Shown here: piece after piece, positions 1 to 55,525 of the stretch
How the letters are laid out: every line of letters starts with the position of its first letter
Position numbering within the stretch: position 1 is the stretch's first letter
From: an uncultured virus (IMG/VR IMGVR_UViG_3300027708_000067)
Taxonomy: Duplodnaviria > Heunggongvirae > Uroviricota > Caudoviricetes
IMG/VR virus record: IMGVR_UViG_3300027708_000067
DNA: 64,000 bases
Strand: one strand, 5' to 3'
Made by a program: the position numbers and the translations under genes
Notes under the pieces: generated by a model
Seen by the model: the letters and a program-made list of their open reading frames with translations, nothing else
Told to the model about the DNA's origin: nothing
Database searches by the model: none

Positions 1-43
1 TTACTTTATTTAAAAAAAAAAAAAAAAAATATAGAAAAGAGTT

Positions 44-77
44 AAGTAAGGGGTACTACTAGTACTACTAGTACAAA
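44..77. repeat. Origin-like arm: three GTAC units with 9-bp period next to an A-rich tract; exact inverted copy of 6051-6084
   Basis: AAGTAAGGGGTACTACTAGTACTACTAGTACAAA is the reverse complement of 6051-6084 (34/34). Confidence 0.85.
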
Positions 78-192
78 TTTATAGCTAAGTCATTGATTTA
101 TATAGGGAGCCACAATTTTCACAAAAAATATAAAAACTTAGGCTTTGTGGGGCCCCAAGACCATGGCCCTCCCGAGAGGCTCAAAAAGGGGT

Positions 193-480
193 TGTGGTAT
201 AAAAACAACACCCCCCATAAGCATGCTTTCATATTGTGAAATGCAATCTCATAATGCGCAATGCACCACAATGGTGCGCGAAGTAAGCGCTCACTTACAT
301 TGCACCACAATGGTGCGCTAAGTTAGTGGCTACTAACCAATGCACCAACATGGGGCATGATGTTAGTGCGCACTAACCAATGCACCAAGATGGTGCGCTA
401 GGTTAGTGATGACTTACGTTAGTGATGACTAACTTACGCAGGCGCGAGGGGGGAGAAAGAGGTGTGGTGTAAATACAACA
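193..480. promoter_or_regulatory. Non-coding array of palindromic operator-like sites (4 NtrC-box-like, 5 GTTAGT-N4-ACTAAC-like, 2 TGTGGT-N6-ACAACA, 1-2 TTTCA-N5-TGAAA)
   Basis: Sites read directly: TGCACCA-N3-TGG(T/G)GC(G/A) at 262, 301, 341, 381; GT(T/A)AG-N6-CT(A/T)AC at 283, 322, 362, 402, 418; period 39-40 bp. Confidence 0.75.
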
Positions 481-4745: not shown

Positions 4746-4892
4746 ATGAATTTAATAGGTGGATTTTTATTTTTACCCGTTTTGCTAGTAGTAAATGTAG
4801 TTAAATGCTTATGGTGGATTGTATCTAATGCTTGGTGGGCTGTGTTAATTTTATGTATATATGCATTATACAAACATTATGCACCAAAATAG
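4746..4892 (+). CDS. Small membrane protein
   Basis: Two hydrophobic stretches. Confidence 0.45.
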   Translation: MNLIGGFLFLPVLLVVNVVKCLWWIVSNAWWAVLILCIYALYKHYAPK

Positions 4893-4949
4893 GGCATAAA
4901 TTTCGCCATGTGGTATAATAGGGGTTCATGCACAAAAATGAACCCCTAT
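4880..4949 (+). promoter_or_regulatory. Promoter of the phage sigma gene: NtrC-like box, extended -10, 12-bp inverted repeat over the start
   Basis: TGCACCAAAATAGGGCA 4880-4896; TGGTATAAT 4911-4919; ATAGGGGTTCAT/ATGAACCCCTAT 4918-4949. Confidence 0.65.
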
Positions 4950-5514
4950 GAACGAAAACGACATTCTTAGTAACTACCTACAATCCTTGTATGGTATAGA
5001 ACCCTTATCTATTGACGAAGAGCATGATCTCGCTAAGCGCATACAAGCAGGCGATGACGATGCCCTAGACAAGTTAATAATCCACAACCTTAGATTTGTA
5101 GTGTATATAGTGCGGCAGATGACCGCCTGGAACCATGGTAAGGTGCCAGTCGAGGACATGATTGGTATGGGTAATGAAGCCCTATTGATGGCGGGCAGAC
5201 GATGGAAACCAAAGAACAGGGCTAAATTTGCGACCTATGCTAAATCCTTTATAGAAAAGGGAGTGCGTAGGGAGCTAGACAATACCGCCAATATCATTCG
5301 ACTACCCGTCAATATTATGGAGCTAGTTAAACGAATGAACTACAACCATAGGGCATTATCCCAAATACTAGGGCGCAACCCTAAACCACAAGAGCTGGCC
5401 AAGATCATGGGTATATCGGTATCTAAGCTAAGCCAAATACAGGGTTATGTATTAAGAGAACCCGTATCAATAGACAATTTAAATCAAGAAAAGTTGGAGG
5501 AGAACGATGATTAA
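4948..5514 (+). CDS. RNA polymerase sigma-70 family factor, regions 1.2-2-3 only (no region 4)
   Basis: YL..L...EPLS.DEE..LA..IQ.GD..A..KLI..NLRFVV; EDMI..GN..L; KFATYA; IRLP; LGR.P...ELA..MG; ends just after EPVSID. Confidence 0.9.
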   Translation: MNENDILSNYLQSLYGIEPLSIDEEHDLAKRIQAGDDDALDKLIIHNLRFVVYIVRQMTAWNHGKVPVEDMIGMGNEALLMAGRRWKPKNRAKFATYAKSFIEKGVRRELDNTANIIRLPVNIMELVKRMNYNHRALSQILGRNPKPQELAKIMGISVSKLSQIQGYVLREPVSIDNLNQEKLEENDD

Positions 5515-5812
5515 ATTAAATTACGAGCAGCAAAAGGCGTATGACCGGTTTATTAGAGCCAGGAACAGGGTGTATGGTCGAAAAGGTAAATGGGTGCGAG
5601 CAGCAGACTATACCTCCACAGTAGATATAGTTGGTTTAAACCATCCCCTTTTTGAATTGAATGAAGAATACCAAGAGTATAAAGACGCGTTTAAACAATG
5701 GCTGGCAGTTGAACCCACTTTCAGGCACGAAGAAAGGATGCGCGCTAGTCGTGGGGATTACGGCACGATGGATAGTTGGGATGATAAACCAAGCAAAATC
5801 AAGGAGTTATGA
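5507..5812 (+). CDS. Hypothetical protein
   Basis: ORF, GGAGGAG SD. Confidence 0.7.
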   Translation: MIKLNYEQQKAYDRFIRARNRVYGRKGKWVRAADYTSTVDIVGLNHPLFELNEEYQEYKDAFKQWLAVEPTFRHEERMRASRGDYGTMDSWDDKPSKIKEL

Positions 5813-6266: not shown

Positions 6267-8585
6267 ATGAAACCGACCAGTTTGCCAGTCAATTTCAATG
6301 CAATACCGATGGAACTCAAAAGAATACCACGTTGGGTTCTTTGGCGCTATGTAGAGGTGGGTGAAGAGGGCAATAAGAGATGGTCTAAACTACCAACTCA
6401 GGCTAATGGTTTATCAGCTTCTTCAACCAATTCAGAGACTTGGGCGGACTTTCTCGCTGTCCAACATGCCTACGAAGACAATCCAGACCGTTTTGCCGGC
6501 GTGGGATTCGTCTTTTCCGATGAAGATAGCCTCATTGGTATCGATCTAGACGACTGTTTTGATTCCGCCACACAGAGTTTCACAAATGCTGCAATGCAGC
6601 AATTAGCAGAATCCATTCAAGGTTATATGGAAATCAGTCCTAGTGGCACAGGGGTGAAGATATTTACCCGCGCTCACTTAAATGCAGCCCACGTTGACCA
6701 TTCCATCGGGCTGGAGATTTACCCACAGGGGCGGTACTTTACCGTCACAGGGCAGCATCTCTCCGGTGCACTGCCCACTGAGGAGCAGGATATTTCCCTG
6801 ATTGTGCCACAAAGGGCGGCGCACATTTCAGGTGATGCGTTTGAGGATTACGCCCCACCCGTCCAAGATTATGACTTAGCCAGGGTGGAGACTGAGCTAC
6901 TGTCTAAGCTTGACCCGGACACAGGTTACTCAGACTGGATGGCAGTAGGGTTTGCGTTGCACCATCAGTTCAGAGGCGATCCGGAGGCATGCGATCTGTG
7001 GGATCGGTGGTCTTACAACGACGGTAACTCGACAGGCTACCAGTCTAGCGGTCAGAACTCATGCTATTCCAAGTGGGCGACGTTTAGGAAAGAGTCGGGG
7101 TGCACACTGCGCTCCCTTATCTTTAAGGTAAACCAAAAGGAAAAGCAGCAAGCCTTGGCTAAAGGCGAGATTATTTTAGACCAAGGCTCGATGAACCATG
7201 CTCGCACATTTTTAGACAGTCATTACGCTAGTGAAGAAGGTTACACGCTGGTGCATTACGCAGAAGACTTTTACATTCATGTCAGGACGCACTATGAAGT
7301 TATTGAAGAAGCCACAATACGATCTAAGCTATACACTTTTCTTGATAAATGCAAAAAGACGGGCAGAAAGGGTGCGCTCGAAATGTTTAACCCTTCTCCA
7401 GCATCCGTCTCTGCCGCACTTGACGCTGTCAAATCAATTACGCATTTGCAAAATCATGCAAACACAAAACCACCTATATGGTTGGATCTTTACGCAGCCA
7501 ACAAACCGGATGCGGCTGATCTTATTTCTTTAAAGAACGGTATTTTCCATCTTAAAGATTATGTGATGCTGCCGCACAGCTTAGGGTTCTTCACACAGAA
7601 CTCTTTGCCGTTTGTATATGACCAAGAGGCTAAGTGCCCACAGTGGTTAGCATTTATGCAATCGATTTGGGGTGATGATCAGCAGTCAATCGATACGCTG
7701 CAAGAGATGTTTGGTTACATTTTGTCGGGTGATACTCGCCAGCAAAAGTTCTTTAACATTATTGGACCCCGCCGTAGTGGCAAGGGAACGATTAACAAGA
7801 TACTAGTATCGCTGCTAGGTCAGCACAATACGGTCGCACCACAATTGGAGGAACTCTGTGATACTTTTGGCTTACAGCCTTGGCTGGGTAAACTATTGGC
7901 TTCTTTTACAGACGCACGAGCTCCTGAACGCAATCGGGGCGCTGTTGTGTCTCAGCTTCTTCGTATTGTGGGTGGGGATACCGTCACAGTCAACAGAAAG
8001 AATAAAGAGAGCTGGAATGGTTATCTGCCTACTCGTATCGTTATTTATTCTAATGAAGTTCTTCAATTAACTGAGAACTCTAATGCGTTAACAGGACGCA
8101 TGATTGTGTTAAAAATGACTAAATCATTCTTTGACCATGAAGATACAGAGCTATCATTTAAATTGGAGAAAGAGTTAGCTGGTATTTTTAACTGGGCAAT
8201 GGAAGGATTAAAGCGCAGACTGGCACGTGGCGGTCACTTTGTACAGCCGGAGACCGGTAGAAGTTTGTTGGAGTTGATGGCTGAACTGGGCAACCCAATT
8301 GGCTCATTCGTAGAAGATGCTTTGGAGTTTGATGCGCTGGGCACAGTATCTAAAGACGATGTGTTTACTTGTTACAAACGCTGGGCGCTGGCTAAGTCAT
8401 TACCGCCAGGTACAGAGTTAGCATTTAAACGTCGCTTCTTAGCTGCCACCCAAGAGCATCGAATAGATGTTGATGTTGATAGAACTAACGGCAATAGGAT
8501 ACATATTTATCGTGGCATTAAGTTAAATCCTAAAGCACAGAAGTACGTAGATAGTGTAGAATCATTTAATGAGGAGGTGTTTTAA
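6267..8585 (+). CDS. DNA primase-polymerase / PriCT-2 / D5-like SF3 helicase
   Basis: IGIDLDDC, EISPSGTGVKI, YFTVTG (AEP); YSDWMAVGFALH..WDRWS (PriCT-2); Walker A GPRRSGKGT. Confidence 0.93.
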   Translation: MKPTSLPVNFNAIPMELKRIPRWVLWRYVEVGEEGNKRWSKLPTQANGLSASSTNSETWADFLAVQHAYEDNPDRFAGVGFVFSDEDSLIGIDLDDCFDSATQSFTNAAMQQLAESIQGYMEISPSGTGVKIFTRAHLNAAHVDHSIGLEIYPQGRYFTVTGQHLSGALPTEEQDISLIVPQRAAHISGDAFEDYAPPVQDYDLARVETELLSKLDPDTGYSDWMAVGFALHHQFRGDPEACDLWDRWSYNDGNSTGYQSSGQNSCYSKWATFRKESGCTLRSLIFKVNQKEKQQALAKGEIILDQGSMNHARTFLDSHYASEEGYTLVHYAEDFYIHVRTHYEVIEEATIRSKLYTFLDKCKKTGRKGALEMFNPSPASVSAALDAVKSITHLQNHANTKPPIWLDLYAANKPDAADLISLKNGIFHLKDYVMLPHSLGFFTQNSLPFVYDQEAKCPQWLAFMQSIWGDDQQSIDTLQEMFGYILSGDTRQQKFFNIIGPRRSGKGTINKILVSLLGQHNTVAPQLEELCDTFGLQPWLGKLLASFTDARAPERNRGAVVSQLLRIVGGDTVTVNRKNKESWNGYLPTRIVIYSNEVLQLTENSNALTGRMIVLKMTKSFFDHEDTELSFKLEKELAGIFNWAMEGLKRRLARGGHFVQPETGRSLLELMAELGNPIGSFVEDALEFDALGTVSKDDVFTCYKRWALAKSLPPGTELAFKRRFLAATQEHRIDVDVDRTNGNRIHIYRGIKLNPKAQKYVDSVESFNEEVF

Positions 8586-13584: not shown

Positions 13585-13763
13585 CAACATTTATTGTAGA
13601 GCATTTACATAACGGCCACCCAATGTTTGACAGCGTTACCGGTGTAGAAGATATTGATTTAACAATGTTTAAAGACATACAAACATTGTGGGTGTGCGAC
13701 ACGAAAGAAGAAATTGAAGCAGTAGAAAGCGAATTAAGGAAAAAACATGCACGACGTAGTTAA
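13581..13763 (+). CDS. Hypothetical protein
   Basis: ORF, coupled. Confidence 0.6.
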   Translation: MTTFIVEHLHNGHPMFDSVTGVEDIDLTMFKDIQTLWVCDTKEEIEAVESELRKKHARRS

Positions 13764-32052: not shown

Positions 32053-33471
32053 TTAGAATGATCCACCTGTTATTAACCCAGCGGTTAATGTTCCAGTAAT
32101 GTTTGCTGAATCAGCAGTTAAATTATTAGTAATAGTAGCTGAATCAGCACTTAGGTTATTAGTAATAGTGGCAGAGTCAGCAGTTATTGCACCAGTAATT
32201 GAGGCAGAGTTAGCAGTAAGTATTTGGGCATCTAATGTTGCAGCAACGGTAACCAATGGTGTAGATAAATTAGAATTATCTATATTAATAATGTTGGTTG
32301 AATTTGCCGATAAACCCAGTATTCCAGTACTGACCAAGTACACACCGCTATGAGTATCGTTGTTAAACGAATACGCTGGTAGTGCTGCAGTGCCGTCAGA
32401 TGCATAGAACGCACCTGTAGTAGCAGATGTTAATGGGTATAAATATTCGCCATCACTTAAAACGGTAACAATTTGTCCAGCAGATAACACTAACGGTATC
32501 TGGGTACTGTTTTCGTTTTGGAAAGTAATGTTATACCCAGACTGATCAGTGTTGTTAGCCAACACATAAATTTGGGTAATGGCAGGCAGTGTTACAGCTA
32601 AAGTTTGTGTTCTAGTACCAGACTGGGCAATGTAGGTTTGAATGATTGGGGCAAAGTTTACTAAACTAAATGTATTGCCAGGGATAGAATCCACATCATA
32701 CGTTGCCGCAGTAAATGTTAAAGCGTTTGGGTTAGCTAAGCCAACGGTAATAAAACCTGTTTGAGCAGCATTTAAAAATATAAAGCCCGAGTCGCCAGGG
32801 TTTGTATTAATGGAAGTTTGACCATTAATAGTATTAGGCGATGTTGGGTTAATGGCTAGTGTGCCAGTACCATTGTTTCTAAAACCAATGTACCAACCAG
32901 TTGATAATGATTGGATAGAAGGTAATGTAAAACTGCCAGCACCAGCGTTCCAAACAAAGGTTGCAGCACGGCTGCCATCAGTAATATTAGGTGATACAGT
33001 TACGTTAACTGGGTTTTGTGTAGTAGCTAGTTGACCGTTGACAGTGGTTAGACCGGCACCAGCCAAAGTAGCAGCATCAGCAAACGAAGTGCCAGCACCA
33101 AACGTTACGTTTTGCCAAACACCAGCAGCAGAAGTATTGTCAGTAAGATAGAAGTACTTACTAATACCAACAGGTACAGTAACGCTAGATCCGCCAATAA
33201 AGTTTGTAATAATAAATTCATGCGAACCCAAGTTGCGGAAAAGAATGTCTGCGCCCAGTGTTCCTTGATCAGCTTGCGGTAAAGCAATGGTAAGACCATC
33301 ACTAGCAGCAACGCAATCAATAATACGGGCAGCAGGAGGCTGGCTACCGTTGACAGTAGAAGGCCAGTAGAGAACTTGATCTGTACTAAAAGGGAGTGCA
33401 AGATAAGATACATCCGTTGGGGTAACAACGGTGCCTGTGAAAGGTGATGTATAGACGGGGGTCGTTGGCAT
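32053..33471 (-). CDS. Tail fibre/needle-like structural protein
   Basis: Thr-rich beta repeats, DGTAALPAYSF..D..SG.Y, C-terminal GGSF. Confidence 0.65.
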   Translation of the reverse strand: MPTTPVYTSPFTGTVVTPTDVSYLALPFSTDQVLYWPSTVNGSQPPAARIIDCVAASDGLTIALPQADQGTLGADILFRNLGSHEFIITNFIGGSSVTVPVGISKYFYLTDNTSAAGVWQNVTFGAGTSFADAATLAGAGLTTVNGQLATTQNPVNVTVSPNITDGSRAATFVWNAGAGSFTLPSIQSLSTGWYIGFRNNGTGTLAINPTSPNTINGQTSINTNPGDSGFIFLNAAQTGFITVGLANPNALTFTAATYDVDSIPGNTFSLVNFAPIIQTYIAQSGTRTQTLAVTLPAITQIYVLANNTDQSGYNITFQNENSTQIPLVLSAGQIVTVLSDGEYLYPLTSATTGAFYASDGTAALPAYSFNNDTHSGVYLVSTGILGLSANSTNIINIDNSNLSTPLVTVAATLDAQILTANSASITGAITADSATITNNLSADSATITNNLTADSANITGTLTAGLITGGSF

Positions 33472-43810: not shown

Positions 43811-44251
43811 TTATTTCCGTAAATGTTCTAATACTATTTGTGGTTCAACAAACCGATCGTTGCTGTGGGGTGTTGCTTCCCACCAGATAAATTGGTTTGG
43901 CACCAAGTGTGATCGGTCTTTTAATAAATTAATGTTCTCATGGTGTCCAAAGATCAACGGATCAGATGGCCCCCACAATACTATGCCTTGTTTGCCTTCG
44001 TCCCATGCAAGATGCTGAAAGAAACTATCAACACCAATCCAAGTACGGCATTCTTGCAACATCTCACGCAACCTTGGCAAACTCATGTTCTTCACAAAGT
44101 TATCTACCAGTTGTTCTTCACCTTCAACGCCAACTTGGATAATTGGCTCGTCAATCATTTCAACAAGCTGTTTCCAATACGTTAGCGGATAGTTCTTCGG
44201 GTTTAACGCGCCCGTTCTTAACTTTTGCGCAAATGGGGCTATGATAATCAT
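43811..44251 (-). CDS. GT9 (heptosyltransferase-like) C-terminal domain protein
   Basis: KNYP..YW..LV, IIQVG, WIGVDSFFQHLA, VLWG. Confidence 0.75.
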   Translation of the reverse strand: MIIIAPFAQKLRTGALNPKNYPLTYWKQLVEMIDEPIIQVGVEGEEQLVDNFVKNMSLPRLREMLQECRTWIGVDSFFQHLAWDEGKQGIVLWGPSDPLIFGHHENINLLKDRSHLVPNQFIWWEATPHSNDRFVEPQIVLEHLRK

Positions 44252-45228
44252 AAGTACATCCCCCGAAACGCATCTTCCAAACTATCAGTCCACTTGCGAT
44301 GCGCCATCCATTTATAGATGCTCCAGTTGTCAATGTCACCAAACAACTGTTTTGCTTCACCAATCGACTTGCCAGGAATAATATCTGGGTAGCAAGTAAA
44401 CACCATCGGGTCTTTTAACTGCGGCAATATGTGGCTAAACACAATGTGATCGCCCATACCGCAATTTAAAACCACTATCGTCTTATCACGACAAGCCAAG
44501 TAGTTTCTAAAAATCTGCTCATCGTGCGTATACAACTCGGCGTTAGTCTCGCTACGAATACCACCTTGCGGGTTCTTCATGTGCCACGTTGTTGCGTTTG
44601 GCACTGCTAAAACCTTATAACCTTTTTGATGCAAGCCGTATGTAAACAGCGTTTCTTCCCGATGTGCTACCCGTGAAAGACCAGTATTAAAGTTGTGCAC
44701 ACCAGCACGGTATAAAAAAGTGCAGTGTAAATGTTCAACTTCCCTAACCATTGGAATAGGGCTCCATTGGATATTGGGCTCACTATCAATGTGATCAATT
44801 TTACCAGTTGAGTTAACATTTTCAAATATATTTGGCGGTGTTAAAACCGCCCCTCCAATTGCTCCAACGTTACTAAGTGCATGTAAGTATAAACTTCTTA
44901 ACACATTAGGCTCGGGGATAGCATCATCATCACAACGCCACACCCACTCGTAACCCTCGTTTACTGCAATGTCATTGGCTTGTTGGTGAATGTGATGTTG
45001 GCCTTTTTTGCCAGCATACCGCCATTCCCACTTAATTGCCTTTAAATCTAACATCTGAAAAAAGTACGAATAAATCATCTCTTTTCGCATGTCTTGCGGT
45101 TCGTCATTATCATCAAATATAATCAGCCGATCCACTGGCTTGGTCTGATTAATAATAGCGTTTAATACCAAGGGCAAGGTTGTATGGTAGCGCCCTCTTG
45201 TTGCTACCGAGCATAGAACCTTACTCAT
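44248..45228 (-). CDS. GT2 glycosyltransferase with a C-terminal GT9 N-domain-like segment
   Basis: I.NQT...D.LIIFDD, WVWRCDDD (DxD), HREET; C-terminal VVLNCGMGDH. Confidence 0.8.
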   Translation of the reverse strand: MSKVLCSVATRGRYHTTLPLVLNAIINQTKPVDRLIIFDDNDEPQDMRKEMIYSYFFQMLDLKAIKWEWRYAGKKGQHHIHQQANDIAVNEGYEWVWRCDDDAIPEPNVLRSLYLHALSNVGAIGGAVLTPPNIFENVNSTGKIDHIDSEPNIQWSPIPMVREVEHLHCTFLYRAGVHNFNTGLSRVAHREETLFTYGLHQKGYKVLAVPNATTWHMKNPQGGIRSETNAELYTHDEQIFRNYLACRDKTIVVLNCGMGDHIVFSHILPQLKDPMVFTCYPDIIPGKSIGEAKQLFGDIDNWSIYKWMAHRKWTDSLEDAFRGMYL

Positions 45229-46450
45229 TGTCCCACCTGCAGATCATCAAGTTGCTAATGTTGTCGTTGCTTACTGGCACCATGTCGTGTGAAATGTTGC
45301 CGTTGTGGCTGATGTAAGTAAACTGAAAGCCAGGGAAATGACTCTCGTTTAATCCATGCAACCTATGGTGTTCACCCCAAAAGCCTTTTGGCTCGTTGTG
45401 TGGCACCGTAATCAACAAACGCCTGCAGTGCTTCTTGAGCTTTTCAACAACTTCTAAACCATTGTCAAGGTGCTCAATCACTTCAAACGCCAAAATAGTG
45501 TCGTAATGCTCCAACTCGTAGCTGTTAATATCTGCCCAATCAAACTGACAGTTATCACCCCACTTCTGATCACGCGCCACATCAACAATAATCGGGTCAT
45601 AATCCAAACCTAAATACTGAATGCGTGGTGCAAAAAACTGTGTACCATAACCGGTAGAACAACCAATTTCTAACAGCTTGTTGCCAAAAATATTACGTGC
45701 TGCCCACTCATAGCGCTGTGTTTCTCTTGGAAAAACCTCGTCACCCTTTAGAAAAACGGCTCGCTCGTAGTTGTTTGACAGGCGCCAGTAATACCAATCT
45801 CTGTTGTACTTCTTAGCCAAACGCAACTCGTTTAGCAAAAACTTTTCTTTCCACTTTTGAATTAGGCTTTCATCGTGCATGGTGCCTTCTGCTTCATGCC
45901 AAATCGGAAAGTCACCTTTGTAACCCACATCTACCAATTCAAAACCAGCATCTTGTGCCAACATGCAAAACTCAATATCATCGCATCCGCCAGTGCCGTA
46001 TTCTGTGTTTAGTAATCCAATTTTTTGAAATACTTTAACATCAATCATCACACAGAAAAACACAATAAACTTGCGTTTTGTAATGTCTGAATACTGTGTC
46101 AATACACCAGCAATATCAGCTACATCTAAACGCTCTAGCCATTTATTTTTTGGCTGTTCTAACAGCACCGTATCGTTGTTTAACAATACAATCTTTTCAC
46201 CCTTGCACACCCGAATGCCATTGTTAACGGCTTTTGGGAAGCCTAGCGCCTCGTTGCTCCAAACTACCACCAAATTAGGTATAGCAGTTTGTAAGTAATC
46301 CAAATAGGCTTTGGTGTTGTCAACACATCCGTTTGCCGATACAACCAACTCTACGTTGGTCATATCGGTGTACTTGATAATCGACTCAATACAAGGTTTT
46401 AAATACTTCTCACAATTGTTATATGTTGGTATAACGATGCTATATTTCAT
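45221..46450 (-). CDS. GT2 glycosyltransferase fused to a SAM-dependent methyltransferase
   Basis: SIVIPTYN, LLNNDT, GCDDIEF; RYEWA, LEIGCSTGYG, FEVIEHL; AAAGGA SD before ATG 46450. Confidence 0.88.
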   Translation of the reverse strand: MKYSIVIPTYNNCEKYLKPCIESIIKYTDMTNVELVVSANGCVDNTKAYLDYLQTAIPNLVVVWSNEALGFPKAVNNGIRVCKGEKIVLLNNDTVLLEQPKNKWLERLDVADIAGVLTQYSDITKRKFIVFFCVMIDVKVFQKIGLLNTEYGTGGCDDIEFCMLAQDAGFELVDVGYKGDFPIWHEAEGTMHDESLIQKWKEKFLLNELRLAKKYNRDWYYWRLSNNYERAVFLKGDEVFPRETQRYEWAARNIFGNKLLEIGCSTGYGTQFFAPRIQYLGLDYDPIIVDVARDQKWGDNCQFDWADINSYELEHYDTILAFEVIEHLDNGLEVVEKLKKHCRRLLITVPHNEPKGFWGEHHRLHGLNESHFPGFQFTYISHNGNISHDMVPVSNDNISNLMICRWDNE

Positions 46451-46482
46451 GTTTTCCTTTAGAGGTTTATACAAACCTCCTA

Positions 46483-46498: not shown

Positions 46499-49400
46499 TT
46501 AGAACGTACCGCCTTTGATACCGCTCGTAATTGCACCGTTGGTTGCGTTAAATACTAATCCAGAGTTGGTGTATACCGACTGACTACCTGTCAATCCTGT
46601 CACCAACGTTGGGTAGGTTGTTGCTGCTGTGGTGTTGCTTACCGATACTGTGGTTGGAGCGACACCGCTGTAACCAGAGATACCTGACGCGCCTGAGAAA
46701 CCAGATACACCAGAACCGCTGTAACCGGAGAAGCCAGACAATCCAGAACCACTGTAACCAGAGAAGCCGCTGTAACCAGAGATACCTGAGCCAGAGTAAC
46801 CACTGTAGCCAGAGAAACCTGAGATACCGCTGCCTGAGTAGCCAGAGAAGCCTGATAAACCAGAGCCGCTGTAACCAGATGTACCACTGTAGCCAGAGAT
46901 ACCTGAGAAGCCAGAGAAGCCGGATGTACCGTTAGTACCGTTGGTTCCAGAGTAACCGCTGGTGCCACTGTAGCCAGAGATTCCAGATGCGCCTGAGAAA
47001 CCGCTGATACCAAATCCGCTGTAACCAGAAATACCTGAGAAGCCGCTGTAACCGCTAATACCAGAACCGCTGTATCCGCTGTAACCTGAGAAGCCTGAGA
47101 TACCAGAGCCACTGTAACCAGAGAAGCCACTGATACCAGAACCACTGTAGCCTGAGAAGCCGCTGATACCAGACGCTCCACTGTATCCAGAGATACCTGA
47201 GAAGCCACTGTAACCAGAGATACCTGAGAAGCCACTGTAGCCTGAGATACCAGACGCGCCAGAAATTCCAGAGAAGCCACTGTAGCCGGAGATACCAGAT
47301 GCGCCAGAGAAACCAGATATACCTGAGAAGCCACTGTAACCTGATACACCAGAGTAACCAGAGATACCAGATGCACCTGAGAAGCCACTGTAACCGCTGA
47401 TACCAGAGCCACTGTAACCAGAGAAACCTGACAAACCAGATCCACTATAGCCAGAGAAGCCACTGTAGCCACTTACACCAGAACCGCTGTAACCAGAAGT
47501 ACCAGAGAAGCCGCTTATACCAGAACCACTGTAGCCAGAGAAACCTGAGACACCAGATCCGCTGTAACCACTGTAGCCTGAGAAGCCTGAGTCACCATCT
47601 TGACCGGAGATACCTGACGCGCCAGAGAAACCGCTGTAACCAGAGATACCAGAGAAGCCAGAGATACCAGATGCACCAGAGAAGCCAGAGCGACCAGAGA
47701 AACCAGAGATACCTGAGAAGCCAGAGTCACCGCTGTAACCAGAGATACCTGAATCACCAGAGAAACCTGAGAAACCTGAGTCGCCTGAGAAACCGCTGTA
47801 TCCAGAGATACCAGACATACCTGAGTAGCCAGAGAAGCCTGATAAACCAGAGCCAGAGTAACCAGAGATACCGCTGTAACCAGAGATACCAGATCCACTG
47901 TAACCGCTGTAACCAGAGAAGCCAGAGATACCAGAACCTGAGTAGCCAGAGAAGCCAGAAATACCTGAGCCAGAGTAACCGGAGAAGCCAGAGTCACCTG
48001 AGAAACCTGAGATACCAGAGTCACCTGAGAATCCAGAGTCACCTGAGAAACCGCTGTAGCCAGAGATACCGGATGCTCCAGAGAAGCCAGAACGACCACT
48101 GTAACCAGAGAAGCCTGAGATACCTGAGAAACCAGAATCACCAGAGAAACCACTGTAACCAGAAATACCGCTGTCACCAGAGAAACCTGAGTCACCAGAG
48201 AAACCGCTGTAACCTGAGATACCAGATTGTCCAGAATAACCAGAGAAACCAGAAATACCAGAACCGCTGTAACCAGATTGACCGCTGTAACCACTGATAC
48301 CAGATCCACTATAGCCACTGTAGCCAGAGAAACCACTTACACCAGAACCAGAGTAGCCTGAGAAACCTGAGATACCAGAGCCGCTGTAACCAGAGAATCC
48401 TGATTCACCAGAGAAACCGCTGATACCAGAGTCGCCAGAGAAACCTGAGAAGCCACTGTAACCAGAAATTCCAGATGCGCCTGAGAAGCCAGATCGACCG
48501 CTGTAGCCAGAGATACCAGATGCACCAGAGAAGCCTGACTCACCAGAGAAGCCACTGTAGCCAGAAATACCAGAGTCACCAGAGAAGCCTGAGAAGCCAG
48601 AGTCACCGCTGTAACCAGAAGTACCTACTTCACCAGAGTAACCTGAGAAGCCAGAGATACCAGAACCACTGTAACCAGATTCACCGCTGTAACCAGAGAT
48701 ACCAGAACCGCTATAACCTGAATATCCAGAGAAACCGCTTACGCCTGATCCAGAATAGCCAGAGAAGCCTGATAGACCAGAGCCAGAGTAACCAGAGAAT
48801 CCAGATGTACCTGAGAAGCCAGAGATACCAGACGCGCCGGAGAAGCCTGAGATACCGCTATAACCAGATTTACCAGAGAAGCCTGATGTGCCTGAGAAAC
48901 CACTGTAACCAGAAATTCCAGAGTCGCCAGAGAAACCTGAGATACCGCTGTAACCAGATGTACCAGTTGCGCCTTGTAAATTAATATCCCATGGATATAC
49001 ACCCGAACCAGCGTAATTGTTTACGTTGAATGAGAACAAACCTGTTGTTGGGTTGTATGCTGTAACAGTTACGTTGGCATAGTTAAAGGCGTCGTGAGCA
49101 ATAACCGCTGTTTGACCAACAGTCCAGCTTAATCCTGTGCCAACAATAATGGCACCAGAAATATCACCTAGAGCAAAGTCGCCGTCTGTACTGGTAGTTG
49201 CATACTTGTCGCTAGCACCAGAAGTACCACTGTAACCAGAGAATCCTGAGATACCAGAGAAGCCTGATGCACCAGAGTAACCAGAGAAGCCGGAGATACC
49301 TGAACCAGAGTAACCAGATTCACCACTGTAACCAGAGATACCAGATCCGCTGTAACCACTGTAACCAGAGAAGCCAGATGTACCGATACCACTGTAACCA

Positions 49401-52400
49401 GAGAAACCAGACAAGCCAGATCCGCTGTAGCCAGAGAAGCCAGACTCACCAGAGAAGCCACTGTAACCAGATTCACCAGAGAAGCCACTATAACCAGATT
49501 CACCAGAGAAGCCAGACGCACCAGATTCACCGCTGTAACCAGAAAAACCAGATTGACCATCTGGGCCTACGATTTGACCAGCGTTAAACCAGTTTGTGCC
49601 ATTCCATACATACAAATCGCCGTCGGCTGTAACAATGTACGCATCATTAACTTGGTTGCCAATTAATGGTAAGTCGCCTACTGTTGCAACAGTGCCTTTG
49701 AGGTTGATTGAAGTACCTTGAGCGCCGCTGTAACCAGAGTAGCCTGAGTAACCTGAAGCACCATCAATACCGCTGTAACCAGAAGCGCCATCAATACCGC
49801 TGTAACCAGAGATACCTGAGAAGCCAGAATCACCGCTGTAACCGCTGATACCGGATCCACTGTAACCACTATAGCCTGAGAATCCAGAGATGCCTGAGCC
49901 ACTGTAGCCAGAGAAACCGCTTACGCCAGAGCCACTATAGCCAGACTCACCACTGTAACCGCTGATACCGGATCCACTGTAACCGCTGTAGCCTGAGAAG
50001 CCAGAAATACCAGAAGCACCGGATGCACCAGAGTAGCCAGAGAAGCCAGATAGACCGTCAATACCACTGTAGCCAGAGAAGCCAGAATCGCCTGACCAAC
50101 CAGAGATACCAGAGTCACCAGAATAACCTGAGATACCAGAGTCACCGCTGTAACCAGAGATGCCTGAAAAGCCAGAGATACCAGACGCGCCTGAGAAGCC
50201 AGAGAAACCGCTGATACCAGAGAAGCCAGATGTACCTGAGAAACCGCTGTAGCCAGAGATACCAGATCCACTGTAACCAGAGTAACCTGAGAAGCCAGAA
50301 ATGCCAGAGCCAGAGTAACCAGAGAAACCACTGATACCAGAACCTGAGTAACCAGACTCACCGCTGTAACCACTTATGCCGCTGCCACTGTAACCACTGT
50401 AACCTGAGAAGCCAGAAATACCGCTGTCGCCAGAGAAACCAGAAATGCCTGAGAATCCGCTGTAACCAGAGATACCAGAATGGCCAGAAAAACCAGAAAT
50501 GCCTGAGAAACCGCTGTAACCAGAGATACCAGAGTCGCCTGAGAAACCGCTGATACCAGAATCACCGCTATAGCCTGAGATACCAGAGTCGCCAGAGAAA
50601 CCTGAGAAGCCTGAAATGCCAGAAGCTCCAGATTCACCTGAGAAACCGCTGTAGCCAGAGATACCTGATCCACTGTAACCAGAGTAACCTGAGAAGCCGC
50701 TAATACCAGATCCGCTGTAGCCAGAGAAACCGCTAATACCAGATCCGCTGTAGCCAGAGAAACCGCTGTAGCCGCTTACGCCAGATCCGCTGTAACCACT
50801 GTATCCAGAGAAACCAGAAATACCGGAGTCACCAGAGAAACCAGAATCGCCTGAGAAGCCACTGTAACCAGAGATACCAGAATGGCCAGAGAAACCTGAA
50901 ATACCTGAGAAACCGCTGTAGCCAGAGATACCAGAGTCGCCAGAGAAACCGCTGATACCAGAATCACCGCTGTAACCAGAAATACCTGAATCACCAGAGA
51001 AACCAGAGAAGCCAGAAATGCCAGAGTGGCCAGAGAAGCCAGATGTACCTGAGAAACCGCTGTAACCAGAGATACCAGATCCGCTGTAGCCAGAATAGCC
51101 AGAGAAGCCTGAAATGCCAGAACCAGAGTAACCAGAGAAACCTGAGATACCACTACCACTGTAGCCAGATTCACCACTGTAGCCACTAATACCAGAGCCA
51201 CTGTAACCAGAATAACCAGAGAAGCCAGAAAGTCCAGAGTCACCAGAGAAACCTGAGATACCAGAATCACCGCTGTAACCAGAAATACCAGAGTCGCCAG
51301 AGAAACCGGAAATACCAGAATCACCACTGTAACCACTAATACCAGAGTCGCCAGAGAAACCTGAAATACCGCTGTCACCAGAGAAGCCTGAAATACCTGA
51401 GAAACCTGATTCACCTGAGAAACCAGAAAAACCGCTTATGCCAGAGTCGCCCGAGAATCCACTGTAACCTGAGATACCTGAGCCACTATAACCAGAATAG
51501 CCAGAGAAACCAGAAATACCAGATCCGCTGTAACCAGAGAAGCCAGATACACCGCTTCCAGAATAGCCTGAGAAGCCACTATAACCGCTGTCACCGCTTC
51601 CGCTGTAACCAGAGTAGCCAGAGAAGCCAGAAAGTCCAGAGTCGCCTGAGAAGCCGCTAATGCCGCTAAAACCGCTGTAGCCAGAAATACCAGAGTCACC
51701 AGAAAAGCCAGAATCGCCTGAGAAGCCACTGTAACCAGAGATACCACTGTCGCCAGAAAAACCTGAAATACCGCTGTCACCAGAGTAGCCAGAAATACCA
51801 GACGCGCCTGAGAAACCAGATTCACCAGAGTAACCAGAAATACCTGAATCACCTGAGATACCAGAATCACCAGAGAAGCCGCTGTATCCAGAAATACCAG
51901 ATCCGCTGTAGCCAGAATAGCCAGAGAAACCTGAAGTTCCTATTTCACCGCTGTAACCAGAGAAGCCTGATAAGCCAGATCCGCTATAACCAGAGTATCC
52001 AGACTCACCACTGTAACCAGAATCACCAGAAAAACCTGAGATACCAGAATCACCACTGTAACCAGAGATACCGCTGTCGCCAGAGAAACCAGAGAAGCCT
52101 GAGATACCAGAATCTCCAGAAATACCGCTGTCACCGCTGTAACCACTGTAACCAGAGTCACCAGAACCGCTGTAACCAGAATAGCCAGAGAAGCCAGATG
52201 TACCTATGCCGCTGTAACCAGAGAATCCTGATAGACCACTACCAGAATAGCCAGAGAAGCCGCTATAACCAGAAATACCGCTACCACTGTAACCAGAGTA
52301 GCCAGAGAAACCAGAAGTTCCTACTTCACCGCTGTAACCAGAAAAACCTGATTCGCCAGAGAAACCTGAAATACCAGAATCACCACTGTAACCAGAAATA

Positions 52401-55400
52401 CCAGAGTCACCACTGTAACCACTAATACCACTGTCACCAGAGTAACCAGAATTGCCACTATAACCAGAGTCACCACTGTAACCACTAATACCACTGTCAC
52501 CAGAGAAACCTGAAATACCAGAGTCACCGCTGTAACCAGAAATACCAGAGTCGCCAGAGAAACCGGAAATACCAGAATCTCCACTGTAGCCACTTATACC
52601 ACTATCACCAGAGAAACCGCTGTAACCAGAGAAACCTGATGTACCAGAGCCACCGCCAGAACCTGGCTGACCGCTGTAGCCAGAGAAACCTGACAAACCG
52701 TTTTGTCCGCTATAACCAGACAAGCCATCTTGTCCGCTGTAACCAGAAGCGCCGTCTTGTCCAGAATAACCAGACTCACCACTTAAACCATCTTGACCGC
52801 TGTAACCAGAGAAACCTGATTCACCGTTTTGGCCAGAGAAACCTGAAATACCAGACGCACCGTTTTGTCCAGAGAAGCCTGAGATACCAGATGCACCATC
52901 TTGACCGCTGTAACCAGAAATACCGGAAGCACCATCTTGACCACTGTAACCGGATTGACCATCTTGACCAGAGTAACCAGAGAAACCTGATTCACCATTT
53001 TGTCCGGAGTAACCAGATTCGCCGGATGCACCGTCAATACCGCTGTAACCAGAGAAACCACTTAAACCATCTTGACCTGAATAACCTGATTCACCAGAAA
53101 GACCATCTTGTCCGCTGTAACCAGAGATACCAGATGCACCATCTTGGCCAGAGAAACCTGAAATACCAGATGCACCATCTTGACCACTGTAACCAGAGAT
53201 ACCAGATGCACCATCTTGACCAGAGAAACCTGAAATACCAGATGCACCATCTTGACCACTGTAACCAGACTGACCATCTTGACCAGAATATCCAGACTCA
53301 CCAGATAAACCGTCTTGTCCACTGTAACCAGATAAACCAGATGCACCATCTTGGCCTGAGAAACCACTTAAGCCATCTTGACCACTGTAACCAGAGAAAC
53401 CTGATTCACCGTTTTGGCCAGAGAAACCTGAGATACCAGACGCGCCATCTTGACCGCTGTAACCAGACTCACCAGACAAACCATTTTGTCCAGAATAGCC
53501 AGAGAAACCAGAAATACCAGAGTGACCAGAAACACCAGATCCGCTGTAACCAGAAATACCTGAGAAACCAGAGATACCACTGTCACCACTGTAGCCAGAA
53601 ATACCAGAGTCGCCAGAAAAACCACTGTAACCAGAAATACCGCTGTCACCAGAGAAACCTGAGAAGCCGCTGTAACCGCTATCACCAGTTGGGCCAACAA
53701 TTGGACCTACGTTGGTCCATGCTGCGCCAGTCCATACATACAAGTCACCATTAGATTGAACAATGTATGCGTCATTTAAATTGCCTGTTGGTGGTAAGTC
53801 CCCTGGAGTTGCAACAGTACCAATAATATTAACTGATGTACCTTGCGCACCACTGATACCAGAGAAACCACTGTAACCAGAAATACCAGAGTCACCTGAG
53901 AAACCGCTGATACCAGAATCACCACTGTAGCCAGAGAAGCCTGAGATACCAGAGTCGCCAGAGAAACCTGAGATACCAGAGTCACCACTGTAACCAGAGA
54001 TACCGCTATCACCAGAAAAACCTGAGAAGCCAGACAAGCCATCTTGGCCACTGTAACCAGATTCACCGGACAAACCATTTTGTCCAGAAAAACCAGAAAT
54101 ACCAGACGCACCATCTTGACCGCTGTAACCAGATTGACCAGACAAGCCATCTTGTCCGCTGTAACCACTTAAACCATCTTGACCAGAAAAACCAGAGAAG
54201 CCAGACAATCCATCTTGTCCACTATAACCAGATTCACCAGATAAACCATTTTGTCCAGAGAAACCAGACTGACCATCTTGACCTGAGAAACCAGAAATAC
54301 CAGATGCGCCATCTTGTCCTGAGAAACCAGAAATACCAGATGCACCATTTTGTCCAGAAAAACCAGAGATACCAGATGCGCCGTTTTGACCGCTGTAACC
54401 AGAGATACCAGATGCGCCGTTTTGACCGCTGTAACCAGATTCGCCAGACAAGCCATCTTGTCCAGAATAACCAGATAATCCAGAAACGCCATCAATACCG
54501 CTGTAACCAGAAAAACCACTTAAACCATCTTGGCCTGAATAACCAGATTCGCCAGACAAACCATTTTGTCCTGAATAACCTGATTGACCATCTTGACCTG
54601 AGAAACCAGAAATACCAGATGCGCCATCTTGTCCAGAAAAACCAGAAATACCAGATACGCCATCTTGTCCAGAGAAACCTGAGATACCAGATGCGCCATC
54701 TTGACCACTGTAACCAGATTGACCGCTTAAACCATCTTGACCGCTGTAACCTGATTCACCAGAAACACCATTTTGTCCAGAATAACCTGATGTGCCATCT
54801 TGACCACTGTAACCAGACAAGCCGTCTTGACCAGAGTAACCAGAGAAACCTGATTCGCCAGTTTGACCGCTATATCCAGAGTAACCAGAAGCAGAAGCTG
54901 CGCCAGGTGCGCCACTATAACCAGAAAAACCTGAGAAACCAGAATCACCAGATACGCCATCTTGACCTGAATAACCAGAGTCACCTGAAACGCCATCTTG
55001 ACCAGAGTAACCAGAAAAACCTGATTGACCGTCTTGACCTGAGTAACCAGAGTCACCAGACAAGCCATCTTGACCGCTGTAACCAGATTCACCACTATAT
55101 CCAGAGTAACCAGATGCAGAAGCTTGACCATCTTGTCCAGAATAACCAGAAAAACCTGAGAAACCAGATGCGCCGTCTTGACCACTGTAACCAGAGTCAC
55201 CAGATGCACCATCTTGACCGCTGTAACCAGAAAAACCTGAGTAACCAGAAACGCCAGACGTGCCACTACCACCGCCAGTGGGTGGTTGTAAAGATAAATT
55301 GCCAGCACCATCGGTGGTCATTACATAACCAGATGTGCCGTCACTTGTTGGGTACGCTAACCCAGTAATTGTAATTTGTGTGCCAGCTGTTAATACGGCA

Positions 55401-55525
55401 TTAACAATATTGTTTGGTGTTGCTTTAGTTGTAACTGTACCGCCGTCTGACACTAAAGGCAATACGTCATTATCCGGTGCAACAGTTGTTACCGGAGGCA
55501 ATTGTGTTATTTTTATATCTGCCAT
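46499..55525 (-). CDS. Giant Gly-X-Ser repeat (collagen-like) fibre protein, 3008 aa
   Basis: Uninterrupted 9-kb ORF; GYS/GFS/GIS/GDS/GQD triplets; three embedded globular spacers; N-term MADIKITQLP, C-term GGTF. Confidence 0.9.
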   Translation of the reverse strand: MADIKITQLPPVTTVAPDNDVLPLVSDGGTVTTKATPNNIVNAVLTAGTQITITGLAYPTSDGTSGYVMTTDGAGNLSLQPPTGGGSGTSGVSGYSGFSGYSGQDGASGDSGYSGQDGASGFSGFSGYSGQDGQASASGYSGYSGESGYSGQDGLSGDSGYSGQDGQSGFSGYSGQDGVSGDSGYSGQDGVSGDSGFSGFSGYSGAPGAASASGYSGYSGQTGESGFSGYSGQDGLSGYSGQDGTSGYSGQNGVSGESGYSGQDGLSGQSGYSGQDGASGISGFSGQDGVSGISGFSGQDGASGISGFSGQDGQSGYSGQNGLSGESGYSGQDGLSGFSGYSGIDGVSGLSGYSGQDGLSGESGYSGQNGASGISGYSGQNGASGISGFSGQNGASGISGFSGQDGASGISGFSGQDGQSGFSGQNGLSGESGYSGQDGLSGFSGFSGQDGLSGYSGQDGLSGQSGYSGQDGASGISGFSGQNGLSGESGYSGQDGLSGFSGFSGDSGISGYSGDSGISGFSGDSGISGFSGYSGDSGISGFSGDSGISGYSGFSGISGAQGTSVNIIGTVATPGDLPPTGNLNDAYIVQSNGDLYVWTGAAWTNVGPIVGPTGDSGYSGFSGFSGDSGISGYSGFSGDSGISGYSGDSGISGFSGISGYSGSGVSGHSGISGFSGYSGQNGLSGESGYSGQDGASGISGFSGQNGESGFSGYSGQDGLSGFSGQDGASGLSGYSGQDGLSGESGYSGQDGQSGYSGQDGASGISGFSGQDGASGISGYSGQDGASGISGFSGQDGASGISGYSGQDGLSGESGYSGQDGLSGFSGYSGIDGASGESGYSGQNGESGFSGYSGQDGQSGYSGQDGASGISGYSGQDGASGISGFSGQNGASGISGFSGQNGESGFSGYSGQDGLSGESGYSGQDGASGYSGQDGLSGYSGQNGLSGFSGYSGQPGSGGGSGTSGFSGYSGFSGDSGISGYSGDSGISGFSGDSGISGYSGDSGISGFSGDSGISGYSGDSGYSGNSGYSGDSGISGYSGDSGISGYSGDSGISGFSGESGFSGYSGEVGTSGFSGYSGYSGSGISGYSGFSGYSGSGLSGFSGYSGIGTSGFSGYSGYSGSGDSGYSGYSGDSGISGDSGISGFSGFSGDSGISGYSGDSGISGFSGDSGYSGESGYSGYSGSGLSGFSGYSGEIGTSGFSGYSGYSGSGISGYSGFSGDSGISGDSGISGYSGESGFSGASGISGYSGDSGISGFSGDSGISGYSGFSGDSGFSGDSGISGYSGFSGISGFSGDSGLSGFSGYSGYSGSGDSGYSGFSGYSGSGVSGFSGYSGSGISGFSGYSGYSGSGISGYSGFSGDSGISGFSGFSGESGFSGISGFSGDSGISGFSGDSGISGYSGDSGISGFSGDSGISGYSGDSGISGFSGDSGLSGFSGYSGYSGSGISGYSGESGYSGSGISGFSGYSGSGISGFSGYSGYSGSGISGYSGFSGTSGFSGHSGISGFSGFSGDSGISGYSGDSGISGFSGDSGISGYSGFSGISGFSGHSGISGYSGFSGDSGFSGDSGISGFSGYSGYSGSGVSGYSGFSGYSGSGISGFSGYSGSGISGFSGYSGYSGSGISGYSGFSGESGASGISGFSGFSGDSGISGYSGDSGISGFSGDSGISGYSGFSGISGFSGHSGISGYSGFSGISGFSGDSGISGFSGYSGYSGSGISGYSGESGYSGSGISGFSGYSGSGISGFSGYSGYSGSGISGYSGFSGTSGFSGISGFSGFSGASGISGFSGISGYSGDSGISGYSGDSGISGWSGDSGFSGYSGIDGLSGFSGYSGASGASGISGFSGYSGYSGSGISGYSGESGYSGSGVSGFSGYSGSGISGFSGYSGYSGSGISGYSGDSGFSGISGYSGIDGASGYSGIDGASGYSGYSGYSGAQGTSINLKGTVATVGDLPLIGNQVNDAYIVTADGDLYVWNGTNWFNAGQIVGPDGQSGFSGYSGESGASGFSGESGYSGFSGESGYSGFSGESGFSGYSGSGLSGFSGYSGIGTSGFSGYSGYSGSGISGYSGESGYSGSGISGFSGYSGASGFSGISGFSGYSGTSGASDKYATTSTDGDFALGDISGAIIVGTGLSWTVGQTAVIAHDAFNYANVTVTAYNPTTGLFSFNVNNYAGSGVYPWDINLQGATGTSGYSGISGFSGDSGISGYSGFSGTSGFSGKSGYSGISGFSGASGISGFSGTSGFSGYSGSGLSGFSGYSGSGVSGFSGYSGYSGSGISGYSGESGYSGSGISGFSGYSGEVGTSGYSGDSGFSGFSGDSGISGYSGFSGESGFSGASGISGYSGRSGFSGASGISGYSGFSGFSGDSGISGFSGESGFSGYSGSGISGFSGYSGSGVSGFSGYSGYSGSGISGYSGQSGYSGSGISGFSGYSGQSGISGYSGFSGDSGFSGDSGISGYSGFSGDSGFSGISGFSGYSGRSGFSGASGISGYSGFSGDSGFSGDSGISGFSGDSGFSGYSGSGISGFSGYSGSGISGFSGYSGYSGSGISGYSGISGYSGSGLSGFSGYSGMSGISGYSGFSGDSGFSGFSGDSGISGYSGDSGFSGISGFSGRSGFSGASGISGFSGISGYSGFSGASGISGQDGDSGFSGYSGYSGSGVSGFSGYSGSGISGFSGTSGYSGSGVSGYSGFSGYSGSGLSGFSGYSGSGISGYSGFSGASGISGYSGVSGYSGFSGISGFSGASGISGYSGFSGISGASGISGYSGFSGISGYSGFSGISGYSGASGISGFSGYSGSGISGFSGYSGSGISGFSGYSGYSGSGISGYSGFSGISGYSGFGISGFSGASGISGYSGTSGYSGTNGTNGTSGFSGFSGISGYSGTSGYSGSGLSGFSGYSGSGISGFSGYSGYSGSGISGYSGFSGYSGSGLSGFSGYSGSGVSGFSGASGISGYSGVAPTTVSVSNTTAATTYPTLVTGLTGSQSVYTNSGLVFNATNGAITSGIKGGTF

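Follow-up and report, generated by a model that had tools for sequence, protein, structure and literature searches.

Phage gene control is usually described as self-contained, relying on promoters and regulators of the phage itself and on host sigma-70. For host nutrient regulators that act on phage DNA, documentation exists mainly from cyanophages, in the form of NtcA and PhoB sites. In marine cyanophages, NtcA sites and Pho boxes located before phage genes were read as exploiting the host nitrogen-stress response (PMC3037559). In the case of NtrC, a consensus of the TGCACCA-N3-TGGTGCA type, TGCACCAnnnTGGTGCA, has been published (PMC8743547), and the site is also given as TGCACC(A/T)4TGGTGCA in Table 1 of a further source (PMC4987338). 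The present analysis concerns an array of sites of this type in the uncultured freshwater virus IMGVR_UViG_3300027708_000067. A stretch of 64,000 nucleotides from this virus, hereafter the window, was analyzed, and coordinates refer to the window unless stated otherwise. The array occupies bases 259–433 and consists of four units of 39–40 bp, each made up of a 17-bp site, box A (TGCACCA-N3-TGGTGCR), followed by a 16-bp palindrome, box B (GTTAGT-N4-ACTAAC type). Judging from sequence comparison, box A may well be a docking site of the host NtrC protein (NRI), and the array, together with a further box at the phage sigma-factor gene, would let the host nitrogen status modulate phage transcription; about even confidence is attached to this reading.

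The copies of box A are located at 262–278 (A1, TGCACCACAATGGTGCG), 301–317 (A2, TGCACCACAATGGTGCG), 341–357 (A3, TGCACCAACATGGGGCA), and 381–397 (A4, TGCACCAAGATGGTGCG), and each of them matches 13 of the 14 specified positions of the NtrC consensus. The distances between their centres are 39, 40, and 40 bp, and Tandem Repeats Finder reported a 40-bp period with 3.8 copies over 259–408. Thus, the four 17-bp sites and the 39–40 bp period given in the preliminary description were reproduced in both coordinates and sequence. The helical phase is only approximate, with 0.71–0.81 of a turn left over. When TGCACCA-N3-TGGTGCA was searched in the window with at most one mismatch, exactly four sites were obtained against 0.01 expected, and none of 100 shuffles reached four. 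Strain X7 has A instead of G at base 278, by which the dyad of box A1 becomes perfect. In addition, this strain has a 20-nt deletion at 412, within the tandem copies of box B, and an additional 40-bp unit (joint 408 to 373).

Box B was found at 322–337 (B2, GTTAGTGGCTACTAAC), 362–377 (B3, GTTAGTGCGCACTAAC), and 402–433, where two copies stand in tandem (B4, 402–417, one mismatch; B5, 418–433). With at most one mismatch to GTTAGT-N4-ACTAAC, the window contains these four copies against 0.16 expected, and again none of 100 shuffles reached four. The copy at 283–298 (B1, GTAAGCGCTCACTTAC), which had been listed with the others, is degenerate, with three mismatches to this pattern, but keeps a dyad of its own with the symmetric arms GTAAG/CTTAC. 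Across the copies, the arm variants change symmetrically, GTTAGT/ACTAAC versus GTAAGT/ACTTAC. The DNA hairpins predicted for single boxes are weak, at −2 to −6 kcal/mol, and a cruciform role obtains no support from them. The minus strand of 120–460 folds with z = −5.2, a value that was not used as evidence because it is expected of any run of palindromes.

Near and distant DNA searches of cultured phages provided no usable relative, and the best TerL match was 53% to an uncultured spring phage and, among cultured phages, 42% to Caulobacter phages. A TerL-based search of IMG/VR retrieved 424 relatives, from which 80 loci were kept. Control regions were defined, independently of the motif, as the 2 kb at 1300–3300 nt upstream of TerL; 41 of 83 loci reached that far, and these gave 37 distinct regions. 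With up to one mismatch allowed, box A was present at least once in 34 of the 37 regions and at least twice in 29, the number per region varying from 1 to 6 across strains and lineages. Equivalent arrays, which the preliminary description had suggested looking for in related phages, are thus found as far as the box is concerned, while the spacing and the partner elements vary. Moreover, in a blind enumeration of perfect palindromes with 7-bp arms (7-N0-8-7) over the 37 regions, TGCACCA-N3-TGGTGCA ranked first, with 46 copies in 25 regions, and the next palindromes were only shifted readings of box A and A/T runs. In 122 distinct site contexts, picked at up to two mismatches, the arms GCACCA and TGGTGC show almost no variation, with T/C and A/G at the outermost positions. 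Variable bases make up the centre, which is rich in A/T, and the flanks. This pattern points to strong purifying selection on box A across a mosaic region.

In several relatives, the boxes are accompanied by sigma-54 promoters. The consensus TGGCACG-N4-TTGCW, with at most one mismatch, was detected in 9 of the 37 control regions, where it occurs one to four times among the boxes (CTGGCACGATTCTTGCAT is an example). The absence of a nearby sigma-54 promoter, as noted in the preliminary description, is therefore true of the subject genome but not of these relatives. Over 517 kb of family loci, 31 of the 34 such matches fall within the 15% of bases around the arrays. Most of them point to the late/packaging operon, as in L064 (positions 1431, 1483, and 1560 of the TerL strand); those of L085 point to the early genes. 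A sigma-54 scan of the window at three mismatches was too noisy to be informative (395 matches versus 343 expected), and weak candidates picked by hand before the early open reading frames (ORFs) failed a stricter scan. The only near-perfect sigma-54 match of the subject genome, TGGCACTTCGTTTGCT (33079–33094, minus strand), is located in a structural gene. It matches TGGCAC-N5-TTGCW perfectly and TGGCACG-N4-TTGCW with one mismatch; the estimated expectation is about 0.06 matches of this kind per genome, and the site could be a chance match or an internal promoter.

Box pairs were also searched outside the set of relatives. A scan of 2.9 million IMG/VR viral contigs for two perfect boxes 5–35 nt apart yielded 51 contigs, 45 of which carry late proteins of the subject family and six of which show no match to them. 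Three of these six loci (L165, L149, and L163) have different terminase families. In L136/L145, two to three boxes are located approximately 230–250 bp upstream of the predicted start of a sigma-54 promoter, TGGCACGGTGTCTGCA, which precedes the ribosome site and ATG of a small-ORF operon by 30 nt. In L165, two boxes lie approximately 160–200 bp upstream of the sigma-54 promoter TGGCACGACCTTTGCT, which faces a TerS-TerL operon. By their sequence, both arrangements read as ordinary enhancer–promoter layouts. Ten boxes were found in a divergent gap at L149:3955-4182. This array and the pair at L146:122-170, from the same phage as L163:4001-4049, consist of perfect boxes in divergent gaps with no sigma-54 core nearby. 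These phages have 35–39% GC, and the loci L149, L146, and L163 do not match the late proteins of the subject family.

A fifth, weaker box A, TGCACCAAAATAGGGCA, is located at 4880–4896, over the −35 position of the predicted promoter of the phage sigma-factor gene (4948–5514). It lies 17 nt upstream of the extended −10 element TGGTATAAT (TATAAT at 4914–4919), spans about −46 to −30, and is followed, after the −10 element, by a hairpin and then the ATG of the gene. A box at the same place, −68 from the ATG, was present in 7 of 18 sigma loci, comprising two copies of the subject phage and five relatives with 69–71% identical sigma proteins, which represent four distinct sequences. The gene product is a sigma-70-type factor of 188 aa with regions 1.2, 2, and 3, in which no region 4 was detected. 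The next ORF (5507–5812, 101 aa) belongs to no known family, and a split or truncated sigma factor could be the case for 4948–5812.

A scan of species-representative genomes yielded three related contigs, all binned in one metagenome-assembled genome (MAG) named 'uncultured beta proteobacterium'. This MAG encodes glnA-ntrB-ntrC and RpoN, with NtrC scoring 602 bits, above the family cut-off, and GlnA 667 bits. Ten box A sites with at most one mismatch were found in it, six on phage-like contigs and four elsewhere. Of the latter, one is located approximately 85 nt upstream of the glnA ATG, one approximately 135 nt upstream of a TorF-porin/P-II operon, and two are intragenic. The GC content of the non-phage loci of the MAG is 0.42, versus 0.44 in the phage. 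The GlnA protein is approximately 91% identical to proteins named Polynucleobacter, and Cupriavidus also reaches 90%. A tRNA scan for host clues found none.

Transcription from sigma-54 promoters requires an activator, and infection drains nitrogen. NtrC represses glnAp1 and glnLp in enteric bacteria. Docking of host NtrC appears the most economical reading because of the consensus match, the purifying selection, the recurrent company of sigma-54 promoters, and the occurrence of the box ahead of glnA and P-II genes in a plausible host. In the subject genome, phosphorylated NtrC would occupy sigma-70-type promoter regions, a mode of occupancy that we infer because no sigma-54 promoter lies within reach there. 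Box A1 would begin at the predicted +1 of the hexamers TTCATA-16-CATAAT (228–255), and the fifth box would cover the −35 position of the sigma-gene promoter, so that phage transcription would depend on the host nitrogen status. In relatives with interleaved sigma-54 promoters, NtrC would act as an activator. The match to the NtrC consensus named in the preliminary description is exact and documented (PMC8743547), and it is backed here by the conservation of the box, the sigma-54 promoters beside it in relatives and in unrelated phages, and the glnA and P-II sites of the candidate host MAG. The binding of NtrC to the boxes, the sign of the regulation, and the identity of the host are all matters that we infer from sequence.

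A broader proposal can be offered only tentatively. Unrelated freshwater phage lineages might have wired their control regions to the enhancer-dependent nitrogen system of the host, with NtrC boxes, sigma-54 promoters, and, in some relatives, Fur boxes being shuffled as cassette-like modules. Phosphorylated NtrC could then be a host-supplied timer or nutrient gate for the packaging/late operon or, in the subject phage, for the phage sigma factor. As a separate observation, Fur-box-like dyads are located between the array and the late operon in many relatives, namely, L064:1915-1929 (a perfect TGATAATGATTATCA), L069:4216 and 4703, L007, L032, L056, L065, and L076. With up to five mismatches to the Fur 19-mer consensus, 50 of 67 matches lie inside the 15% of bases around the arrays. 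The subject phage has no Fur match near the array and a single match at this threshold, at window position 13762. A second host nutrient regulator, for iron, may feed into the same control region.

Several results weigh against NtrC docking. The subject genome contains no intergenic sigma-54 promoter candidate near the array, and the canonical NtrC mechanism consequently cannot operate there. In the relatives, the sigma-54 boxes are 1–10 nt from NtrC-type boxes, far closer than in known enhancer geometry. Box spacings peak at 25, 40–42, 49–50, 59, 77, and 92 bp and thus follow no single helical phase. These distances would suit a decoy, or a protein other than NtrC, equally well. Nearly all copies are consensus-grade, unlike the more degenerate natural sites of the NtrC regulon. 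Of the 18 sigma loci, 11 lack the promoter box, two having decayed versions and nine none. At most one mismatch being allowed, box A was not found in 3 of the 37 control regions (L016, L054, and L070) or anywhere in G002, a complete relative of 65.9 kb closed by terminal repeats. Because of these cases, box A is to be regarded as dispensable, and its distribution marks it as an accessory module outside the replication and packaging core. As for the host, the link of the phage to the Polynucleobacter-like MAG consists of binning and GC content only, which leaves the MAG a candidate, and the GlnA identity does not settle the genus because GlnA is too conserved. Finally, most phage ORFs belong to no known family, and one of them may encode an unrecognized DNA-binding protein.

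Such a protein is the core of one alternative, in which the boxes would be an operator array for a dimeric regulator encoded by the phage, with a specificity equal to or copied from that of NtrC. This early activator or repressor would also switch the sigma-factor gene from a class-II position. The placement of the fifth box suits this explanation, as it spans about −46 to −30 of a promoter that has an extended −10 but lacks a −35 element, and such a class-II position is the classic place of phage-encoded activators. The near-consensus sequence of all copies is usual for phage operators, the neighbouring elements B, C, and D (described below) are phage-specific and imply that phage factors act in the region, and many small ORFs are without a family. 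However, a search for a Fis-type helix-turn-helix (HTH_8) in all six frames of the phage at E ≤ 1 gave none, and no helix-turn-helix was detected among 59 ORFs scanned with Pfam. The early genes beside the array are mosaic, with the largest family in 11 of 28 loci only, and no early family is thus as widespread as the box, which is present in 34 of 37 regions. Box pairs of this kind are also found in phages whose terminases are of different families, twice together with sigma-54 promoters, and a shared protein would be needed in all of them. Moreover, chance would have to account for the identity with the 14-position consensus of the host, and a phage-encoded regulator is considered unlikely. 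In another alternative, the boxes would be a decoy that, with four to five sites of consensus grade on each genome, titrates the few host NtrC dimers as the genome reaches hundreds of copies, blunting the nitrogen-stress response while no phage promoter is regulated; in relatives, the RNA polymerase carrying sigma-54 would be titrated too. Tandem sites of consensus grade without a sigma-54 promoter in the subject genome would serve this purpose, and the box number that differs between strains and lineages (with the additional unit in X7) and the sigma-54 boxes that abut NtrC boxes in the relatives, unlike known activation geometry, are also in line with it. However, a single box at one exact position over the sigma-gene −35 in four distinct diverged sequences would have no role, the boxes of L136/L145 and L165, 160–250 bp upstream of gene-facing sigma-54 promoters, have the ordinary activation layout, and the benefit of switching off the Ntr response remains hypothetical. 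A decoy is distinctly unlikely on this evidence.

Two further explanations place the array in DNA metabolism. As a replication origin, the boxes would be iterons for the P4-alpha-like primase-helicase (6267–8585), beside an A/T-rich unwinding tract. The array is indeed located at the switch of gene orientation and GC skew, beside poly(A) and inverted repeats, and the 772-aa primase-helicase has PriCT-2, D5_N, and DUF5906 domains and phage homologues annotated as P4-family primases; P4 alpha binds iterons through its C-terminus. This is improbable in view of the box-free G002, the one informative genome, whose primase-helicase is 70% identical and, over the last 270 residues of the protein, as similar to the box-carriers as these are to each other (78–79%). 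A box on the sigma-gene promoter and the pairing with sigma-54 promoters are, in addition, foreign to origins. That the array is instead a pac or terminus element, bound by the small terminase or host proteins at a DNA end, seems highly improbable. The contig end is nearby, and the array lies approximately 0.7 kb upstream of the late operon, whose first genes are a 121-aa ORF, a 330-aa ORF weakly resembling the N-terminal regions of terminases, and TerL. However, this end is a homopolymer assembly break across which the relatives are continuous, the 121- and 330-aa proteins are only 44–73% identical among relatives while the box is invariant, and G002 lacks the box. Among the functions that the preliminary description had put forward, a nutrient-sensing control region fits best because a box stands on the sigma-gene promoter and the relatives pair boxes with sigma-54 promoters. 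The sponge stays a minor alternative, and the packaging or entry scaffold loses its basis because the place is an assembly break and G002 has no box.

The position of the array in the genome was determined from the record and its relatives. The window corresponds to bases 8–64007 of a 68,107-bp IMG/VR record, both ends of which stop inside a poly(A) tract flanked by an inverted repeat. Logan contigs from three runs start at window 44–53, right behind the poly(A) tract, and contigs of relatives (e.g., L010 and L026) run uninterrupted through the equivalent place. The 24 sequencing runs listed for this sequence include no RNA run, and the contigs compared are DNA contigs. Because of the poly(A) ends, the Logan contig starts, and the continuity in relatives, the supposed genome end is an assembly break within an intergenic region and no demonstrated genome terminus, and the location 'at the genome end' given in the preliminary description was not confirmed. 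The poly(A) run, of 18 to approximately 30 bases, is bracketed by a 20–25-bp inverted repeat (GTACTACTAGTACTACTAGTAC versus GTACCAGTAGTACTAGTAGTAC; window 1–80 and the terminal 110 bases of the record at L003:8000-8108). The relatives have the same architecture with other repeat sequences, and it breaks assemblies. Within window 1–11, 5 of the first 11 bases differ from G000:C1:8-18, with identity beyond, probably reflecting two versions of a ragged record end.

The first late gene, on the minus strand, and the first early gene, on the plus strand, are separated by a divergent gap of approximately 750 bp, which contains the array; gene orientation and cumulative GC skew both switch here. The rightward early/replication block (664–22701) encodes a GP88-family protein, the sigma-70-type factor, the P4-like primase-helicase, an SNF2 helicase, an exonuclease, a gp2.5-like single-stranded DNA-binding protein, ribonucleotide reductase, and DNA polymerase. 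The leftward block contains structural, lysis, and packaging genes and, at the opposite end of the record, finishes with portal, TerL, the 330-aa ORF, and the 121-aa ORF. One 21-nt translation-start context, TTGAGAGGAATTATCATCATG, is common to the first three early ORFs, at 691–711, 1017–1037, and 1353–1373, and is also found in L081. A 3008-aa ORF (46499–55525, minus strand) has collagen-like tail-fibre repeats, and glycosyltransferase and methyltransferase genes (43811–46474) follow it inside the structural block. N4-type hairpin promoters, in which the box would form a 6-bp stem with a 3-nt loop, were considered and rejected, as the 3008-aa ORF is a collagen-like tail fibre and no phage or virion RNA polymerase was seen.

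A motif map of the control regions showed a recurrent order, namely, a GC-rich hairpin element, a double dyad (D-D), the first box A, units of box A and companion, GCGGGTGCGAGGGG, further phage-specific dyads, and the early genes. The companion sits 2–4 bp behind box A and varies by lineage, being box B with a 4- or 8-nt centre, a GTTGCGGTGCAAC-type dyad (box C), or a sigma-54 promoter core; some lineages have box C only. Since the companion differs in this way, box B is one of several interchangeable partners. In the 3.1-Mb candidate host MAG, box B has no exact match and D has one, while box C, with at most one mismatch, occurs at four sites on phage-like contigs and three single sites on other contigs. 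By these counts, B, C, and D appear phage-specific, whereas box A and the sigma-54 core are sites of host type. The plural 'host regulators' of the preliminary description is accordingly unsupported for box B, which is absent from the MAG as an exact match and replaced by other elements in other lineages. Box B is a real, dyad-symmetric, and lineage-variable site for a factor that is probably encoded by the phage. Early-ORF clustering revealed no protein family that cleanly tracks box B or C.

In the window, the D-D element (227–261) consists of the two 15-bp dyads TTTCATATTGTGAAA and TCTCATAATGCGCAA, abuts box A1, and overlaps the sigma-70-like hexamers TTCATA-16-CATAAT. It was found as 79 distinct segments in the family loci, both strand readings of the palindromic element being counted, and its dyads stand 35 and 15 nt before the first box A in many lineages. 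Its phage-specific form there is TTYCRCAWTGYGRAA repeated twice, 20 nt apart, abutting the first box A. In relatives, the spacer of the sigma-gene promoter is occupied by a single copy of the D dyad (AAATTTCACAATGTGGTATAAT), at the place that corresponds to window 4897–4913. The D dyad may be the operator of a regulator that the phage itself encodes, or it may represent a class of promoters. On the early-gene side, the array is closed by the conserved element GCAGGCGCGAGGGG (438–451, plus strand; family consensus GCGGGTGCGAGGGG). Farther to the left, at 135–215, a conserved non-coding element, AACTTRRGNTTTGKGGGGCC, followed by GC-rich hairpins is present in nearly all relatives and has no Rfam match. 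On its minus strand, a hairpin is followed by TTTTT, and the element may either terminate leftward transcription or be an RNA itself. An Rfam search of 1–1400 at E ≤ 1 returned no family.

The literature search, which did not extend to subscription journals, revealed no publication that describes NtrC boxes or sigma-54/NtrC modules in the control regions of phages. Compared with lambda-type operators and iterons (OR/OL, ori-lambda, and P4 ori/crr), the locus is alike in having tandem dyads in a divergent gap beside A/T-rich DNA. It is unlike them in that the searches gave no cognate protein of the phage, the sequence of the site is that of a host consensus, and the array is dispensable in G002, which has the same replication protein. 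The NtrC activator sites of the enteric glnAp2, glnHp2, and glnK promoters share with box A the 17-bp dyad TGCACCA-N3-TGGTGCA, the A/T-rich centre, and the occurrence in tandem copies, and in the phage relatives and two other phages, the boxes likewise accompany sigma-54 −24/−12 promoters. However, the enteric sites are located approximately 100–140 bp upstream of the sigma-54 core, versus a few bases in the phage relatives. Moreover, the phage array belongs to a lytic-type phage and not to a nitrogen-assimilation operon, has four boxes at 39–40 bp with no sigma-54 promoter, and alternates with a second palindrome that is not of host type. A likeness in layout is provided by glnAp1 and glnLp, in which an NtrC box overlaps the core promoter, as box A1 would at the predicted +1 and the fifth box over the predicted −35 position.

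As in the cyanophages, where NtcA sites were reported (PMC3037559), sites of a host nutrient-stress regulator would be carried on phage DNA. In the case of the cyanophages, the regulator is the CRP-type NtcA with GTA-N8-TAC sites in cyanobacterial hosts, versus the AAA+ enhancer-binding NtrC and a probable betaproteobacterium here, and the sites are scattered single ones, versus a tandem array in a central control region that, in some lineages, includes sigma-54 promoters. If NtrC docking is true, the concept of host regulators acting on phage DNA would be extended to abundant heterotrophic freshwater bacteria, to enhancer-binding proteins and sigma-54, and to the core early/late switch instead of auxiliary genes. 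It would also provide a testable link between the nitrogen limitation of lakes and the timing or yield of phage infection.

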